64,000 bases of DNA. Source: Escherichia phage FL12. The notes below the pieces were generated by a model, which saw only the letters and a program-made list of their open reading frames with translations, was not told where the DNA came from and did no database searches. The DNA lies in the sequence record PP400786; one strand, written 5' to 3'. The position numbers and the translations under genes are program-made. This document shows positions 917 through 57,131 of this stretch, piece by piece; the stretch's first letter is position 1; the number at the start of each line of letters is the position of its first letter.

Positions 917-1100
917 ACTTTTTTAAAAATATTCGTAATAAATGTGAATACCAATCACTACTGCCGAAACTTGCGCAACCCACCACGCACAAGCAATAAG
1001 TACAGAATTCAAAATCTTCATAATAACCTCATCACAAAAGTAAATGTTAAACAAATTAATGGAATACTAATTAACCAAACAAAACACCACCATAATGAAC

Positions 1101-1364
1101 TCATAGTTCAATCTCAGCGATTTTCATTTCATTACTATTAATAGCCGCTTTAAGACTATCTGAAAGAATTACATTCCAGTGGTCATTCATATGACCATTA
1201 ACTAAGCGTGTAATTTCTTCAGGAGTTGAAAAATAAGGCGTATCAGACTCCCAATGCGATAGTCCCAAGCGAGTATAAATCATACCTTCATCATCGCTAG
1301 AATATTCAACTGACACAAACTCATCAGTTATTTTATGTTTAGCGTAATAAAATTTAAATTTCAT
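1101..1364 (-). CDS. hypothetical protein
   Basis: 87 aa ORF; ATG preceded by conserved leader ending GGAGGAGT. Confidence 0.55.
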   Translation of the reverse strand: MKFKFYYAKHKITDEFVSVEYSSDDEGMIYTRLGLSHWESDTPYFSTPEEITRLVNGHMNDHWNVILSDSLKAAINSNEMKIAEIEL

Positions 1365-1389
1365 TTTTACTCCTCCGTAGCTGATAGTT

Positions 1390-1422
1390 GTATAGTACCA
1401 CAGTCCTTGTGGTTTGTAAACC
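1390..1422 (-). promoter_or_regulatory. T4-type early promoter plus conserved leader
   Basis: Minus strand GTTTACAAACCACAAGGACTGTGGTACTAT then ACAACTATCAGCTACGGAGGAGT. Confidence 0.5.
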
Positions 1423-1436
1423 GTTTTGTGAAATTT

Positions 1437-1994
1437 TTAAATGGAAAGATACCATCCGTTGTAGTTGCTTTTTCTTACAACTTTACGAAGGTCTTCTCTA
1501 TCACCGATGAACTTCGGAGTGTACTGGATGACACCTGGATGAATTTCTTTAGTGTTGAATATAATTATACAGTCAGCGACTTGGTGATTCAGAATGGGCC
1601 CTAGATTTATTCCAGAACCATATGGATACTCTCCGCTGCATCCGGTTGTTACCGAAATCCAACGTGAGTCAGTTTGATGTGTTTTGACTTCTACACGAAG
1701 CCCACAGTATTTTGGATGCGCCAGTACATCCCATGCGTACGTATACGGGTCATTAACATCCTCTTGGCCTTTGTTAACATACCCACTCAGCCAATCTGCT
1801 ACAAAAAACTCTGCATACACAGCGATACGGCATCTTTCGATAACTTCTGCTTTATCCTGGTTCGGGTTTTGTTTTAAAGAGTATCTTGCTGTATCAGCAA
1901 TTTTGACCTTCATTTCACTAGTCAAGTCACTGTTCGATAGGGTAAATGACGGAATCTGAAATAGTCTCTGCAAACCCGGATTCGTTTTCTGCAT
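1437..1994 (-). CDS. denB: DenB-like endonuclease IV (by position and size)
   Basis: 185 aa ORF immediately downstream of rIIB region; T4 DenB is 185 aa in the same position. Confidence 0.5.
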   Translation of the reverse strand: MQKTNPGLQRLFQIPSFTLSNSDLTSEMKVKIADTARYSLKQNPNQDKAEVIERCRIAVYAEFFVADWLSGYVNKGQEDVNDPYTYAWDVLAHPKYCGLRVEVKTHQTDSRWISVTTGCSGEYPYGSGINLGPILNHQVADCIIIFNTKEIHPGVIQYTPKFIGDREDLRKVVRKSNYNGWYLSI

Positions 1995-5777: not shown

Positions 5778-5793
5778 AGCTCCCGAAGGAGCT
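5778..5793 (-). terminator. UUCG-tetraloop hairpin plus U-tract after HNH gene
   Basis: Minus strand AGCUCC-UUCG-GGAGCU followed by UCGUUUUAAUUUU. Confidence 0.6.
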
Positions 5794-6605
5794 TAGGACA
5801 TCCAACACATTTTATAACCTTTGCAGGTTCTGTTAGGATTATTTAATGCTTTCAATATATTAGAAGACCCTATATCTAAATACTCCCTTAATTCATAAAG
5901 ATAGTTAAAATCAACAGTTTCACCTGTTTTTACACTTGTGATTCTTATAGGCCTTCTTTCATATTTAGATTTATACAACTCTCTAGTCTTAGCTTTAGTT
6001 TCTTCTGACCTAGGAGTGTATGGTTTAAATCCTTTTGTTTTAAATGTTTCCATTCTTGATTTAGTTATTTTATCCTGGTGTTCTTTTGTTTTTACAGGTG
6101 CTTTTCGCCCATTCTCCCAAGATAACTTGTTGGCCTGTATTATTTTATCTATTGCTTCTTGCGTATGAGTTTTACCATAAAATGGATTTAATTCGCCTAT
6201 ACGTTGTGAAGCAATATGTGACATTAATTCTCTTGTTGCTTTAGTATGTTTTTTACCTTTAAATGGGTTGCCATTTTTAGCAATCCATTCTTTCATAAAT
6301 CTAGAGTGCTCTTTAGAGAATTCTTGTTTAAGCCAATCATAATCTCTAGAATTTCTAGCTCCCATGTAAAAAGCTCTAATAGCCATAAGCATAGAACGGT
6401 TCTTATGAATTTTATAAAGCAATAAATGGGCGATAAAATGCTCTCTAGGGGTCATTTTAACTAGATTTGATTTAGCATTACTCCCGCCCATAGATTTAGG
6501 CAAAATATGGTGAGTTTCAGTATAATTAGGAATAGTGCTGCGGTTTTTAGCCGCAGCGATAAGTTTATCATAAATTTTACGATAATTCATTATCGTAGCA
6601 TCCAA
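5793..6605 (-). CDS. HNH homing endonuclease (Mob-type) with NUMOD-like repeats
   Basis: 270 aa; HNH motif ETHHILPKSMGGSN...REH; repeated NPF(Y/K)GK(T/K)HT motifs; sits between rIIA.1 and gp39 as mobA does in T4; 5' end overlaps gp39 3' end. Confidence 0.75.
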   Translation of the reverse strand: MDATIMNYRKIYDKLIAAAKNRSTIPNYTETHHILPKSMGGSNAKSNLVKMTPREHFIAHLLLYKIHKNRSMLMAIRAFYMGARNSRDYDWLKQEFSKEHSRFMKEWIAKNGNPFKGKKHTKATRELMSHIASQRIGELNPFYGKTHTQEAIDKIIQANKLSWENGRKAPVKTKEHQDKITKSRMETFKTKGFKPYTPRSEETKAKTRELYKSKYERRPIRITSVKTGETVDFNYLYELREYLDIGSSNILKALNNPNRTCKGYKMCWMS

Positions 6606-18021: not shown

Positions 18022-18489
18022 CTAAAACAATAGTAGGAGCATCGTCAAATTCATGAATTTTAGCAATTTTGGATTTAAATTATTCCATACATAATAAATA
18101 AAGTATGATAAAGCATCTTCACTCGCAATTATAAATTTATTTCCTTTATCTATTTTCCAACTATATAATGAATCGTACGAATAGAAAGATAAAGGTTTAT
18201 CATTATATTGTTCTGCGCTAACATTAATGTATTCGGATTTAGTAAATGCTTCAATTGCTCTAAACGGAATATTTGGTACAGTTTCAATAATACCAATCTT
18301 TTTAAGTTTTATTTCAGCATCTTCTGGAACTGGCATTGAAACGAAATTTTCTACGAGATACATAGGGTTACAATAACCCTTATCAATCACTACGGCTACA
18401 GTAATTGGAACATCTTTAGCAAACGACATGCTATTACTGCTAATATACATTTCAAACAAAATCGCTTCCATAATTTTCCTCAATCGCAA
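18022..18489 (-). CDS. hypothetical protein
   Basis: 155 aa ORF (true start may be a downstream ATG). Confidence 0.45.
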
Positions 18490-21787: not shown

Positions 21788-21788
21788 A

Positions 21789-22130
21789 TTAACCTCTATT
21801 CATAAAAGCATTAAAAATTTGGTCATCAATAGATGGCGCAGTAATATTTTCTGCATCATTTAGCAAATCATTAATTTCATCAGATAGCATAACACATGTA
21901 CCTTTATTTCCTGTAATTGTTACTGCACAATTACGAACGTTTTCTTTATCAAATTTTAGGTTAATATTTTCGTAGTGAAAATCCTTTAATGCCGAATATA
22001 TCTTTAAAATGAAATTGTCTTTTACTACAATAAACCCAACCTCACTATTAAAACGTGGTTCATGGAAACTGTAATAAACCTTTTCATCTATAAAATCGTA
22101 TGAAATTTTTCCATTTTTAAATATGAAAAT
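21789..22130 (-). pseudogene. truncated paralog (C-terminal half) of the adjacent 210-aa gene; no start codon
   Basis: About 114 open codons ending ...SIDDQIFNAFMNRG, nearly identical to the C-terminus of 22146-22778 (...SIDDQIFNAFMNRD); about 45 nt of near-identical DNA at both 3' ends; no in-frame ATG/GTG. Confidence 0.5.
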
Positions 22131-22145
22131 TCAGAACTATACATA

Positions 22146-26589: not shown

Positions 26590-27267
26590 TTATAGTAGTG
26601 TTCTTGTTCCACGAAATACTTCGAGCATTCTTGCATAAGATTTATTTGGAAATCCAGCTTCAATTGCTAATTTTTTAAGCTTAATAGCACCGGGTTTTCC
26701 AGAGTTTTCCCATATTTCTTTAATCTTTTCAATGTTATCCCACATTATTGGGTCACGTTTATGTGATGGTTTATTTCTATTATAACCATATGGATTATTA
26801 AGCAAAGCTTCTTTTCGTTTTGCTTTAGTTTCTTCTGACTGCTTTTTGCCTAGCTGGGCTTTCCGGCAAACATCACTAAATCCAAGATGTTTTGGTTTTC
26901 CTTTTTGAGCTTTTGAAATTTTTTCTTTGGTTTCTGATGAAACTCTATAACCAATTCTTCTACCACCCTCTCCACCAATTTTTAAATTATAAGTCATAGG
27001 ATCATTTACCACATCTATTGTTACTAATTCTCTTTCAGCATCACGGGCTGATTTAAAATCTTTATAAAACCCAAGAATGCTTAAATTAAAATTTTTCTTA
27101 CCATACTTTTTCTTGGCTTGTGCTAATAAAGTTCCTGATCCCATATAACCATCATTTAAATCATCGGTTGAATGAGTTCCATAGTAAATTTTATTATTAA
27201 CTAAATTAGTTATAACATAAGTATAATTATATTTCTTTTCTTTATGTCTTTTCATGTCATTAATCAA
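26590..27267 (-). CDS. segA: GIY-YIG homing endonuclease (SegA-like)
   Basis: 225 aa; GIY-YIG motif YTYVITNLVNNKIYYGTHS; between uvsX and beta-gt as segA in T4. Confidence 0.7.
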   Translation of the reverse strand: MINDMKRHKEKKYNYTYVITNLVNNKIYYGTHSTDDLNDGYMGSGTLLAQAKKKYGKKNFNLSILGFYKDFKSARDAERELVTIDVVNDPMTYNLKIGGEGGRRIGYRVSSETKEKISKAQKGKPKHLGFSDVCRKAQLGKKQSEETKAKRKEALLNNPYGYNRNKPSHKRDPIMWDNIEKIKEIWENSGKPGAIKLKKLAIEAGFPNKSYARMLEVFRGTRTLL

Positions 27268-48919: not shown

Positions 48920-49220
48920 TTTCTTCTCGGTCAAATCGGTGTTTACAATGGCGGCATTTATAACGAAGATTACTAGTCTGCCAATGGACCAATTGCACCT
49001 GTTCAGTTCCACATTCAGGGCAATTAGGAACGTTTTTAGAAGCACGTTCGCGGCGTTCAACCATGACCATTACAGAATCCCAATTAACAGGAGGGCTATA
49101 ATCATCACAACCATGAATCTTTCCACGCATTTCTAGATCGTCTTCTTCACCAGCCATAATAATTTTAATTAAACTGGAATTACTTGAAGCTGCAATGTCT
49201 TCTAATAGACGCTTTTTCAT
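48906..49220 (-). CDS. zinc-ribbon protein
   Basis: 104 aa; CPEC...CRHC. Confidence 0.5.
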
Positions 49221-49262
49221 TTCAATACCTCAATAGCATTACGTAAACCATTTGCTTTTGCA

Positions 49263-49895
49263 TTAAGAGCTTTTAACAATTTGGTGTGTTCTGCAATTTG
49301 GGGCTTCAACTTCAATCAAACGAGCATTGAGATATTCGCGTTCTTCTTTCATAGTATCATTCCCATGATTGGGTTTTGGTGCAGATTTAAATTCACTAGG
49401 GTCCTTTAATTTAATAACAAATTTAGTTTCAAACAGTGAAAGACCATAATTCGTATTATCATCAAAGGATTTGACTACATCCATATCAGATAATAACACG
49501 CGCAAATTATAAGCCAAAGAACTAATAGTTTCATTGTGTTTATTAGCTTCGCGTGGTTTCATATACGGAAGATTTTTATATATCTCGTGCGGAGCACAAA
49601 TGATAATTGACAATTCAAATTGTCCATTCTGGGACGATGGAGTGAATTTAGCCGTAACCCAGTCTTTTACATTCACATTAATAGTACGGTTATCACCATG
49701 ACAAAACAGTCTACGAGAATGCTTAAAAAGCATATTCACGTTATTATTGAATTCGTGTGAAAATTCACTAGCAAATTTTTCTTTACTACATTTAGAAAGC
49801 CATTCTTCTGAATAAGTTCTTTTCACGTCGTTAATAATATTAAATGTAACAACACTAGCATTTGATACATTAGTCTCAATGTAGCTTGGATACAT
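49263..49895 (-). CDS. hypothetical protein
   Basis: 210 aa ORF. Confidence 0.5.
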   Translation of the reverse strand: MYPSYIETNVSNASVVTFNIINDVKRTYSEEWLSKCSKEKFASEFSHEFNNNVNMLFKHSRRLFCHGDNRTINVNVKDWVTAKFTPSSQNGQFELSIIICAPHEIYKNLPYMKPREANKHNETISSLAYNLRVLLSDMDVVKSFDDNTNYGLSLFETKFVIKLKDPSEFKSAPKPNHGNDTMKEEREYLNARLIEVEAPNCRTHQIVKSS

Positions 49896-50140
49896 AAATT
49901 TTTAACATTATTAACAGCTATTATAGAAGATAGTAATCGGGAACGTTTGAACCACTCGAGCAAAGAACCAAGAGAATGTGAATACGCATTTTGTGTATCT
50001 TTACAAATATGGTTTTCCCATCCAATATAGTCTAAAAAATCACGAAGAATATTATTGATTACTGCTCTGTGTCCTATCTGATAATTACGGTGTTTAGTAA
50101 TAAGACTGTCAAAATAATCAATATAATGTTTACGAGTCAT
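49823..50140 (-). CDS. hypothetical protein (start trimmed to ATG after GAGGAG RBS)
   Basis: ORF-track start at 50191 lies inside the early promoter; about 105 aa; 3' end overlaps next ORF by about 73 nt. Confidence 0.4.
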   Translation of the reverse strand: MTRKHYIDYFDSLITKHRNYQIGHRAVINNILRDFLDYIGWENHICKDTQNAYSHSLGSLLEWFKRSRLLSSIIAVNNVKNLCIQATLRLMYQMLVLLHLILLTT

Positions 50141-50167
50141 AATAATCTCCTCAGTAGAAAATAAGAA

Positions 50168-50199
50168 CATTATACCACATCCTTGTGGCAAAGTAAACT
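50168..50199 (-). promoter_or_regulatory. T4-type early promoter
   Basis: Minus strand GTTTACTTTGCCACAAGGATGTGGTATAAT. Confidence 0.5.
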
Positions 50200-53173: not shown

Positions 53174-53488
53174 CTAAAAGAAACTTCTTTCACAATTTTT
53201 TCCACTGAACCACGCGCTCACTGCTTTCTTAGTCTCAGGAGCAGTGTTATCCATAAACCATTCAAAAGCAGCCTTTTTATGATTCTGGAGGGCTTCTCGG
53301 GCTTTAATCTGCTCACGGTCTATTAACACTAACATATGAGCCTTTCTTGTCACCAAGGGCTTCTTATGATTTTTTGAATACTCCCAATCATTTGTCCATC
53401 GCATCGTTGTTGCGAACTGAAATACAGCTTCTTTAATTTTAGTTTCGTAAATTTCACGAGCCTTTGAGTATAACATCACTACCTCCAT
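53174..53488 (-). CDS. hypothetical protein
   Basis: 104 aa. Confidence 0.5.
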   Translation of the reverse strand: MEVVMLYSKAREIYETKIKEAVFQFATTMRWTNDWEYSKNHKKPLVTRKAHMLVLIDREQIKAREALQNHKKAAFEWFMDNTAPETKKAVSAWFSGKNCERSFF

Positions 53489-53558
53489 TTACCAGTTTAA
53501 TTCTAGTCATCTTTTTGATGGCAGTCCATATAATCTATTTCTGAACTGCCTTTTTGTC

Positions 53559-54279
53559 TTAGGATTCTTCTAAATGTCTTTTCTGAAAAGTTGATACCAT
53601 ACTACGATACGGTTCATTTGGATATCCGTGTTTTATAGCTTCCTTTGTAAATTTTCTCCATCCACATTTAGTTTCTTTCCAGAGCTCGAATAATTCATCT
53701 TCATACTGCCATATAGTTAAATGAGAACGCTTTGCAGCTTTAATTCCATTAATATGCTTTTCTTTTACTGCAGGATTGCTTAGTTTCTTTTTAATAATAT
53801 TACTAACTTTTCTAACAAAAACCGGGTCCTTATATCGTTGCGAAGTTTTTATTGAAGTGTTTTAATTTAGCTTCCGGCGTGGATGTGACCTCTTTCATCT
53901 TTTTCTTCATATGCTGTATATGATTAGGATTTTTCCATAAATTTATAGAATGCTTTTTGCATTTTATCCTAGTTTCATCTGCAACCTTTCCTCCTTCACC
54001 CCCGTATGACAGGTTAACACAGTTTTTCCCATATTTCAATTTACCTGCCATGATATATAATATTTCAGCTTGTACCATTTTATCATAATTATCAAAAACT
54101 TCTAAAACCGTTTTTGATAATATGTGGTCATTTGACACTTTTACACGTTCTATATAATTTCCACTACCAACATACGAATCATTGATATTATTAGTTATAT
54201 GTCGACCATAATAGTATTTCTTAATACCTGTCTTTAAATTTAATATTTCAGTTTTATAGATAGTAAAATATTTTTCATT
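53559..54279 (-). pseudogene. decayed Seg-like GIY-YIG homing endonuclease gene, split across frames
   Basis: GIY-YIG N-terminus EKYFTIYKTEILNLKTGIKKYYYGRH...YVGSG lacks an in-frame start (ATG is 1 nt out of frame in an A5 run); middle ...KYGKNCVNLSYGGEGG and C-terminal ...IWQYEDELFELWKETK... segments homologous to the intact SegA-like protein but in a different frame. Confidence 0.5.
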
Positions 54280-55255
54280 TTAATAATACCGTTTCAGCGA
54301 TTTCTTCCCAATGGTTTTTGTCGGTCATAATAAAGTCAGCAAGATAAAGAGCAGTACGCAGTGAAACATTGCGTAAACGATTAACATTGACTTTCATCCA
54401 TGATAATGCTTTATAAGTTTCTTCATCAGAAAGACCGCGTTTTTGCATCATGTCAGTTGAAAGAATAACATCTTCAACCCTGACCATAATTTCTTCATTA
54501 GTGTGAACACCCAAATCTAAATAAACTGAGCGGGAAACTAATGCTTGTAAATGTGGAGCAAGTTTAGTACCACGGTCTAATTCGCGGTCAATATCAACGT
54601 TTGTGATAAAAACAATCGTTCCTTTAAATTCAAACTCGCGCTCAATGCCTTTTTCTTCTAAGTAAGAAGATGCAGTGCTCCAGCAGACTTTACGGGTCTC
54701 TCCAGTGTCCAGAGCAGCTTTCAGAAGATTAAGAATGTCCATATCAGAGAAAACATCCACATCATCAATCAAAAGGACAGAATTCTCTTCACGATTATTC
54801 CAAAGCTGCTCATAAAGACCAATACCAGAGATTTTACCGTTAATGCTTTTATATTCAATGTATCCAATATCATTTGCTTTATTCAAAGCTTTATCTAAAG
54901 AATACGTTTTACCAATACCCGCCGCACCAGAGATAATTAATGAACGAATGTTTCCGTTAATAATACCATTCGTCATCATTCCCATAACATTAAATCTTTT
55001 ATTAATGCGGGTTTTCATATCTTCATATGATTCTTTAACTTCTTCAACTTTTACACCATCATATGAAATGTCTGATTTGTAAACCCAAACACCGCGACGC
55101 TTACCGTCAATTTCAACAAAAACTTTACCATCTCCTTGTGCATCTACCGGAGCATTATCTGGGAACCATTCGCCTAAGAGCTCAAAAGTTCCAGAGATTT
55201 CTTTACCGAAGTAGATACCCTTATTGATAGTTACAGTTTTCATTTTATTCTCCAA
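54275..55255 (-). CDS. AAA+/P-loop ATPase of unknown function
   Basis: 326 aa; Walker A GAAGIGKT, Walker B LLIDDVD; own early promoter. Confidence 0.7.
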   Translation of the reverse strand: MENKMKTVTINKGIYFGKEISGTFELLGEWFPDNAPVDAQGDGKVFVEIDGKRRGVWVYKSDISYDGVKVEEVKESYEDMKTRINKRFNVMGMMTNGIINGNIRSLIISGAAGIGKTYSLDKALNKANDIGYIEYKSINGKISGIGLYEQLWNNREENSVLLIDDVDVFSDMDILNLLKAALDTGETRKVCWSTASSYLEEKGIEREFEFKGTIVFITNVDIDRELDRGTKLAPHLQALVSRSVYLDLGVHTNEEIMVRVEDVILSTDMMQKRGLSDEETYKALSWMKVNVNRLRNVSLRTALYLADFIMTDKNHWEEIAETVLLK

Positions 55256-55357: not shown

Positions 55358-56368
55358 TCATTTATAATAACTTCGGTGGTTTTCAAGATAGACCTTCTCA
55401 AGGAAGTCATCCCAAAAACCCATGTCTACTTTTTGCTGCATACCGTTCTTAGAAGCTTCAATAGATGCTGCTTCTACTTGATCGACCACATCTTCCAAAA
55501 ACTCTTGAACCGTTTTAAATGGATGTTTACCCAACTTCACGTCGAGAATAAATGGAGCATCTTTGAGTGGATAAACCAAGTCACCAGTTTTGTAAATTTC
55601 CAATAGTTGAAGTCCACCACGACAAGCATGACTCAAAGCTTTCCAGTCAATACCTTCGTTGGCTTCGGCCTTACGAGCACGTTCACCATATTCAGCATCT
55701 AGTTTGTTCAGTGACTGCTTAAGCTCAATAAGAGAAAGCGTTGTCTGATATTTACGACCCAACACAGTGTAGAACGTTTGTGGGCCTGTTTTCTCATGAT
55801 TATGGAACACCCATTCACAAAATTCGTTTTCTGGAAGACGATGCTTAATATCTTCAACTTTAGTGCGACGTTGCTTAATAGAACCATCTTCTTGGTAATC
55901 AACCCATTGCTCAGGGATTTGATTAACTACTTTCAATACATCACGTAATGCAGCCAAACGAGAACCCTTGACACCGTATTTAGAAGCTTGCTTGCGGACA
56001 TATCCTAAATATGATTTCATGTTAGTCGTATAAAAACGAGAACGGTTGTCTTGAATAAACTTCCACACATCAGGCAAATCAGATTTAACCACTAGCTCAG
56101 GTGGAGTGTGAAGCATATCTAATGCTACAGTTTCACCATCTGCTGCTAATTTAAAGAAATATTTAAGACTGTATAGTTCATGGTCAATATCATCTTTAGT
56201 GTTTTTAGATGATGTGTTGTTAGTGTTTTTACTCATGTGCTCTTTGACATTTCCGATAAGAATATCGCGAGCAGGAGGAACAAAAATTTCTTTAAAATCT
56301 ACATCAGATTCTGGGGTAGAAGTTCCATAAAGATGACTACCAAAATAAGACTTAACTACAGTTTTCAT
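55358..56368 (-). CDS. predicted nucleotidyltransferase (pol-beta-like fold)
   Basis: About 336 aa; NTase signature GSHLYGTSTPESDVDF; start overlaps 3' end of HNH gene. Confidence 0.6.
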   Translation of the reverse strand: MKTVVKSYFGSHLYGTSTPESDVDFKEIFVPPARDILIGNVKEHMSKNTNNTSSKNTKDDIDHELYSLKYFFKLAADGETVALDMLHTPPELVVKSDLPDVWKFIQDNRSRFYTTNMKSYLGYVRKQASKYGVKGSRLAALRDVLKVVNQIPEQWVDYQEDGSIKQRRTKVEDIKHRLPENEFCEWVFHNHEKTGPQTFYTVLGRKYQTTLSLIELKQSLNKLDAEYGERARKAEANEGIDWKALSHACRGGLQLLEIYKTGDLVYPLKDAPFILDVKLGKHPFKTVQEFLEDVVDQVEAASIEASKNGMQQKVDMGFWDDFLEKVYLENHRSYYK

Positions 56369-57131
56369 TATTAGACCTTTCATAATCTTCATTAAATTGT
56401 ACAATCAATCGATGATAATTAGATTTTGGATATCCTAATTTACTTATATAAGTTCCGAATGACCCACGTTTAGGTCTATTTAATTTAATCCATAACTTAT
56501 AAAGTAAGTCATAGTCTTGCCAATGTTTACCAGTTCTTTGTCTAATTTTAGATGAATTTGATTGTTTCTTTTTAGTTTCAAAATTATTCAAAGATTTTTT
56601 GACTGCAGCAGAGTGTTTTTCTTTAACTCCCGGTCGTTTAAAAGCAGCTTTCACCCCTTTAGATATTTTTTCTTTAACTTCCGGTTTGTTTTGTGCTTCT
56701 AACTGGGATTCTGAAATTTTAGCCCTTATTTCAGGAAGACTTAATGTTATCGAACGTTTTTCTCTGTATTCATTAGACTTCCACATTTCTTTCATTGTAT
56801 TAGAATGTATTTTTGAAAATTTTTCTCTAACTAACTGATATCCTCTTGAAGTTAATTTGAGATTTCTTCCTAAAGAATCTTCTCCAAAATTATAAAATGA
56901 CCACCATGCATAAATTAATCCAGGCGAATTATAATGAATTTTAGCTAAAAGCCAATGGGCTATAAAATGCTCTCTAGCTGTTAATAAAACTAGATTATCA
57001 GAATCATCATTACCACCAATACAAGATGGAATAATATGATGCTTTTCCGTATAAAAATTTAATTTAGATTTATCTAATTTTCTGAGTTTTCCTTTCTTAA
57101 TTAAATTATTATATACTTTAGTATAATTCAT
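56352..57131 (-). CDS. HNH homing endonuclease (Mob-type, mobD position)
   Basis: 259 aa; HNH motif EKHHIIPSCIGGNDDSDNLVLLTAREH; paralog of 5793-6605. Confidence 0.75.
   Translation of the reverse strand: MNYTKVYNNLIKKGKLRKLDKSKLNFYTEKHHIIPSCIGGNDDSDNLVLLTAREHFIAHWLLAKIHYNSPGLIYAWWSFYNFGEDSLGRNLKLTSRGYQLVREKFSKIHSNTMKEMWKSNEYREKRSITLSLPEIRAKISESQLEAQNKPEVKEKISKGVKAAFKRPGVKEKHSAAVKKSLNNFETKKKQSNSSKIRQRTGKHWQDYDLLYKLWIKLNRPKRGSFGTYISKLGYPKSNYHRLIVQFNEDYERSNNENCS

Follow-up and report, generated by a model that had tools for sequence, protein, structure and literature searches.

That homing endonuclease genes pass through a degenerate stage in their life cycle is textbook knowledge. Passages of one review describe such genes as degenerating once their target sites are exhausted (PMC2988022), and the defunct I-TevIII of T4 (PMC2790892) is an example of a homing endonuclease gene disabled in an otherwise intact locus. 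Among T-even phages, the free-standing enzymes SegA to SegG and SegH have a GIY-YIG domain at the N terminus with a helical DNA-binding region after it, lie between genes, and are patchily distributed. I-TevI is intron-encoded, and its catalytic domain (PDB 1LN0) is joined to a DNA-binding region with a zinc finger and a helix-turn-helix.

The closest described system is a seg-like gene between nrdC.10 and nrdC.9, first named RB32ORF093c in phage RB32. Annotations in dozens of genomes already cover the family, the locus, and the patchy distribution of this gene. Carriers include RB32, T6, RB5-10, RB14, RB51, and FL23, and their annotations read “putative site-specific intron-like DNA endonuclease,” “homing endonuclease,” or, wrongly, “segE.” The last label is a public annotation error in AR1 and RB68; T4 segE occupies a different locus. 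A literature search found no paper that names RB32ORF093c and no biochemical study of an orthologue, and the pertinent passages of reviews (PMC2988022 among them) enumerate the seg and mob genes of T4 without it.

Here, we describe a disrupted copy of this gene in Escherichia phage FL12 (record PP400786), within a 64,000-nucleotide stretch of DNA referred to as the window. It shares with RB32ORF093c the locus, the start codon overlap (ATGA), and the length, and its DNA is 98 to 99.6% identical to that of 66 phage records, a similarity that by alignment is far beyond chance. It differs in that one run of six A residues is shortened to five and one run of three is lengthened to four, which leaves codons 3 to 138 out of frame. 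Compared with SegA to SegG and SegH, the protein is only 22 to 31% identical, lacks a direct Pfam match to GIY-YIG or NUMOD3, and has another insertion site; that it would cleave DNA is predicted by analogy with those enzymes. Sequence identity to the catalytic domain of I-TevI is 19%, and the window gene is unlike I-TevI in the intron location and DNA-binding modules of the latter. In contrast to the defunct I-TevIII type, the window copy has only two 1-nucleotide lesions, which are possibly nonbiological, and no further decay. The seg-like homing endonuclease gene is a known one, and the window has either an ordinary null allele of it or a copy with sequencing errors.

Results

The window is a segment of a Tequatrovirus (T4-like) genome with minus-strand genes, as judged by blastn against phage genomes, and is approximately 96% identical to RB32, T6, FL08, BF15, and RB3-10. 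The disrupted gene, identified as an orthologue of RB32ORF093c by alignment and by the annotation of its relatives, occupies 720 nucleotides on the minus strand (53559..54278, with the TAA stop codon at 53559..53561), so the end at 54279 given in the original prediction was one nucleotide too far. It lies in the nrdC cluster between two intact minus-strand neighbors: upstream nrdC.10 (54275..55243; 322 amino acids, an AAA/STAND-like NTPase) and downstream nrdC.9 (53174..53488; DUF7203). In T6, nrdC.9 (NC_054907.1, 2325..2627) is publicly mislabeled “HNH homing endonuclease.” Intact orthologues are likewise 720 nucleotides long and encode 239 amino acids. The original prediction had proposed looking for an intact copy in related genomes, and such genes were found and aligned, from RB32, FL23, T6, N2, JE01, and others.

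Comparison of the T4 nrdC.10/nrdC.9 junction with the window by blastn delimits a mobile cassette of 733 nucleotides (53563..54295, minus strand) relative to T4, which has no seg gene at this site. The cassette replaces 38 nucleotides of T4 (11 codons at the end of nrdC.10 with the stop codon that follows them, plus 2 nucleotides at the start of the spacer) and itself supplies the 3′ end of nrdC.10 (ending in EEIAETVLLK and the stop). Of 518 records matched by the flanks, 66 have the seg-like gene between nrdC.10 and nrdC.9, and this presence/absence polymorphism, together with the sharp borders against T4, is that of a free-standing intergenic cassette. Judged from these borders, it is built as free-standing homing endonuclease genes usually are. 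By analogy with characterized Seg enzymes, an intact enzyme would be expected to cleave the nrdC.10/nrdC.9 junction of a coinfecting phage that lacks the cassette; recombinational repair of the double-strand break would then copy the cassette into that junction. Just 3′ of the seg stop codon is a hairpin (GGCAGT, a 19-nucleotide loop, and ACTGCC; 53520..53550, minus strand) with no T run after it. It is kept in the seg-less T4 too and is therefore part of the spacer between nrdC.10 and nrdC.9 and not of the cassette.

Undoing both length changes yields a protein that matches a public cluster, P0001 (74 members), at 100% identity and departs from the RB32 protein by 2 residues. The assignment to seg-like GIY-YIG homing endonucleases, made originally from the letters alone, agrees with several lines of comparison. 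The repaired protein matches PHROG 314 (“homing endonuclease”) along its full length (E = 4e-30), tblastn matches link it to SegH (31% over 151 amino acids) and T4 SegB (27.5% over 166 amino acids), and an exhaustive HMMER search returned 1438 relatives. The predicted homology to the SegA-like protein encoded elsewhere in the window (26590..27267) was also recovered, its C-terminal part included (BLASTP, E = 7e-9, 22% identity over 218 amino acids). In an alignment of 61 sequences, G25, E72, and N89 do not vary, and Y8 and Y23 hardly do; at the position of the catalytic arginine the protein has R26, yet the conserved column is H27.

The repaired protein has no Pfam match at E values up to 10, GIY-YIG and NUMOD3 included, and no NCBIfam match, and searches of PDB sequences with the protein and with a profile of the 61 sequences returned no significant match (I-TevI reached only E = 0.78). 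Pfam matches do occur among the 61 homologues: PF19835 (SegE_GIY-YIG) in 19, PF01541 in 9, and NUMOD3 in 19. The SegA-like paralogue itself matches GIY-YIG PF01541 (37.3 bits) and NUMOD3. The link to the GIY-YIG superfamily is thus transitive and structural, since the matches lie in homologues and not in the protein itself. On the structural side, the GIY-YIG catalytic fold, a three-stranded sheet with flanking helices, was found. Residues 101 to 238 are predicted to be helical and align to the C terminus of the SegA-like protein; this part of the protein has no NUMOD match. Sequence comparison thus places the gene at this locus in the known RB32ORF093c family of free-standing, seg-type GIY-YIG homing endonuclease genes.

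The only ATG of the window gene (54276..54278, minus strand) is a genuine start codon that overlaps the TGA stop of nrdC.10 (54275..54277) as ATGA. That this ATG overlaps the upstream stop, is followed by a run of five A residues, and leaves the core 1 nucleotide out of frame had all been noted in the original prediction, and all of it is present. The position of the ATG is nevertheless no oddity, because the intact orthologues use the same start, which is so annotated in RB32, FL23, T6, N2, and JE01. No Shine-Dalgarno sequence is evident by eye upstream, which suggests that translation is coupled to that of nrdC.10.

The first lesion is in the run that encodes Lys-Lys at codons 2 and 3 (54271..54275, minus strand), where five A residues stand in place of the six of all intact alleles and shift the frame by −1. 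The second lies about 410 nucleotides downstream (53860..53863, minus strand; gene nucleotides 414 to 416), where four A residues replace the three of all 20 other alleles compared, a shift of +1. Together they displace codons 3 to 138 and with them the whole catalytic domain. The catalytic GIY-YIG domain and linker (codons 4 to 138; 53864..54270, minus strand), delimited by translations, conserved columns, and the fold match, form an open segment outside the frame of the ATG, within which fall Y8, Y23/G25, E72, and N89. As the translations bear out, this core lacks an in-frame start, with no ATG, GTG, or TTG ahead of codon 47. The segment for the all-helical C-terminal domain, presumed to bind DNA (53559..53861, minus strand), is in the ATG frame; it lacks its own start codon and, though the frame is shared, stops separate it from the ATG. 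From the ATG itself, the frame runs for 12 codons, MKNILLSIKLKY, and then reaches a stop. The sole ORF that a mechanical search still finds in the gene (53830..54138, minus strand; GTG start, 102 amino acids) contains neither the GIY nor the YIG motif and is unlikely to be a gene.

Taken as given, the sequence is that of a null allele: the window copy has no uninterrupted ORF from a usable start codon, and the catalytic domain cannot be translated from the only start codon that there is. The gene had been read as spread over three frames, a reading that we dropped after working through the codon phases; there are two, with only codons 3 to 138 displaced and the ATG frame restored by the lengthened run at 53860..53863. 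It had also been called decayed. Disruption by frameshift is indeed seen in the given sequence, but the damage is smaller than that word implies, since two 1-nucleotide changes of homopolymer length are the only lesions. Among 21 alleles, the window copy has no substitution of its own in the seg gene.

The window has seven unique changes of ±1 nucleotide within ORFs; six fall in homopolymer runs, and the seventh turns a lone T into two. Beyond the two in seg, the five others break four ORFs, each of which is unbroken in all relatives examined. In a motB paralogue (a homologue of RB32ORF010c), an added T at ~10717 changes the C-terminal ~13 residues. In mrh (18022..18489, minus strand), which is 161 amino acids long in nearly all of more than 10 relatives examined, five T residues have become four (18058-18062) and the last ~23 residues are replaced. 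The weakly AdfA-like homologue of RB32ORF033c (21788..22145, minus strand; 118 amino acids), which adjoins gene 61.2, has five T residues in place of six near its start (22106-22111); no ORF of ≥40 amino acids remains there in the window, and the region is 1 nucleotide longer in all 30 best phage hits. Finally, nrdC.3 (49217..50191, minus strand; 308 amino acids in RB32, T4, T6, and BF15) is split into ORFs of 122 and 210 amino acids by two changes unique to the window, G3 to G4 at ~49300 and T6 to T5 at ~49899, another −1/+1 pair that resembles the pair in seg; a search for the 210-amino-acid fragment found no such protein on record. Every large or essential gene of the window is intact.

Discussion

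We see an even chance that the lesions are genuine and that the gene became a pseudogene very recently, which would put it at the start of degeneration in the cycle by which homing endonuclease genes invade, degenerate, and are lost. Under this reading, the run of six A residues beside the start codon would be a hot spot for slippage, and the second indel would be a later, neutral event in a gene that was already dead. Evidence for it comes from an independent metagenome contig, UMED01029746.1 (gene at 1100..1819), which has the same change from six A residues to five and not the second insertion. Over 8 kb, the contig and the window share only 93.4% identity; codons 3 to 239 of its seg gene are fully open, and all of its complete neighbors (nrdC.9 to nrdC.2) are intact. 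Independent homopolymer lesions occur in the same gene of other phages: T5 to T4 in AR1, A6 to A5 at nucleotide 252 in G157lw, and G5 to G12 in RB10. The RB10 expansion (KM606999.1, gene nucleotide ~277), which splits the gene into two annotated ORFs, may be real or may be a poly-G sequencing artifact; among close relatives of RB10, the gene is intact in RB5 and RB7, which were checked, and annotated as a single endonuclease gene in RB6 and RB9. From blastn match lengths, no frame-breaking length change is attributable to the coding sequences of the flanking nrdC.10 or nrdC.9, and the one off-by-one length that was traced (FL08 type) falls in the spacer. By length alone, five lesions in seg against none in its flanks has, by our calculation, a probability of ~0.006.

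The placement of the indels within the window bears on the same question. When the 7 in-ORF indels were placed at random in a simulation, all essential genes were spared with P = 0.094 and two genes were hit twice each with P = 0.025; the joint probability of 0.003 suggests a filter of selection. Because these statistics were picked after the data were seen, they carry us only as far as an even chance for genuine mutation and leave sequencing error a chance somewhat below even. Taken together, the tests of error against mutation that use the distribution of indels point in conflicting directions, and the reading as genuine mutation stands only slightly above its rival. Two observations sit awkwardly with it: the second lesion is in a short run of three A residues, an unlikely site for natural slippage, and the gene bears no mark of relaxed selection among the 21 alleles in the form of further substitutions beside the two disabling indels.

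The main rival takes up the homopolymer sequencing errors that the original prediction named as an alternative: the real phage would have an intact 239-amino-acid gene, and all seven indels would be unpolished base-calling errors of a homopolymer-prone platform (454, Ion Torrent, or Nanopore), which we hold to be a serious possibility, a little short of even. It would account for the concentration of the seven changes in homopolymer runs and for the breakage of four other ORFs that relatives keep intact. Shortening affects 3 of 40 six-base runs and 2 of 280 five-base runs, and unique substitutions are not enriched in the window genes affected. In the five alignments of these genes, the only other sequences with unique indels are BF15 (nrdC.3) and T6 and FL08 (ORF010). 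According to annotation tables, the unique 1-nucleotide indels of RB32, FL08, BF15, and T6 are intergenic, except for that of T6 in the annotated 61.1 ORF. Since the unique indels of relatives are thus mostly intergenic and those of the window are inside ORFs, the window resembles an assembly with unselected homopolymer errors.

Other comparisons point the same way. Undoing two changes yields a protein that already exists (P0001), and all 10 contigs that encode an identical nrdC.10 protein have an intact 239-amino-acid gene; contigs with identical nrdC.10 or gp56 proteins come from other phages, with their genes intact. The allele with four A residues has no exact match in IMG/VR or in GTDB genomes, and exact-pattern scans of IMG/VR for the two mutant alleles returned none, against 1 match for the wild-type control. 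What speaks against error is that the five-A allele is present independently in UMED01029746.1, in an assembly whose complete neighboring genes are intact, and that other phages have independent lesions in seg and none in its neighbors. Random errors would also be expected in essential genes, which account for 29% of coding length and 15 of 49 six-base runs, and the simulation above indicates that they would seldom spare all of these or strike two genes twice each.

A biological alternative is that the disruption is recoded or reversible. The A run after the ATG could act as a contingency tract that sets a potentially toxic endonuclease off with five residues and on with six, or a −1 slip of tRNA-Lys could yield the protein at a low level; we regard this as very improbable. 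In its favor, the five-A allele recurs in two divergent genomes, the whole remaining ORF of the metagenome allele is pristine, and a −1 slip at AUG-AAA-AAU would, from the sequence, recreate the wild-type N terminus M-K-K-Y. Yet more than 60 alleles are plainly in frame, and the window copy would need a second, opposite shift at the run of four A residues. An X XXY YYZ heptamer is absent, and the 111 nucleotides downstream fold no better than shuffled sequences (z = 0.40). A run of five A residues is, moreover, too short for efficient transcriptional slippage. The broader proposal, that the six-A tract at codons 2 and 3 is a recurrent slippage switch from which five-A “off” alleles arise repeatedly and either revert or are read through by a −1 slip of Lys-tRNA, has hardly better prospects; if true, T-even phages would gain heritable yet reversible control over a selfish and potentially toxic nuclease. 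Programmed ribosomal frameshifting was rejected, with no heptamer, no downstream structure, relatives in frame, and two opposite shifts required.

Whichever of genuine mutation and sequencing error holds, the allele matters little in itself. If the lesions are real, it adds another example of how homing endonuclease genes of T-even phages begin to degenerate, with a hint that the six-A run beside the start codon is a preferred breaking point. If they are artifacts, approximately seven homopolymer errors have produced false pseudogenes (seg, nrdC.3, mrh, the AdfA-like ORF, and the motB paralogue), and the lesson is one of quality control: polishing is needed before annotation or comparative use.

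The window contains at least four homing endonuclease genes, including the SegA-like gene at 26590..27267. Two of these are intact genes of the HNH type: mobD (56352..57131, minus strand), which follows nrdC.11 as in T4, and a mobA-like gene (5793..6605, minus strand) that comes shortly after a fused 60+39 topoisomerase gene of 606 amino acids.
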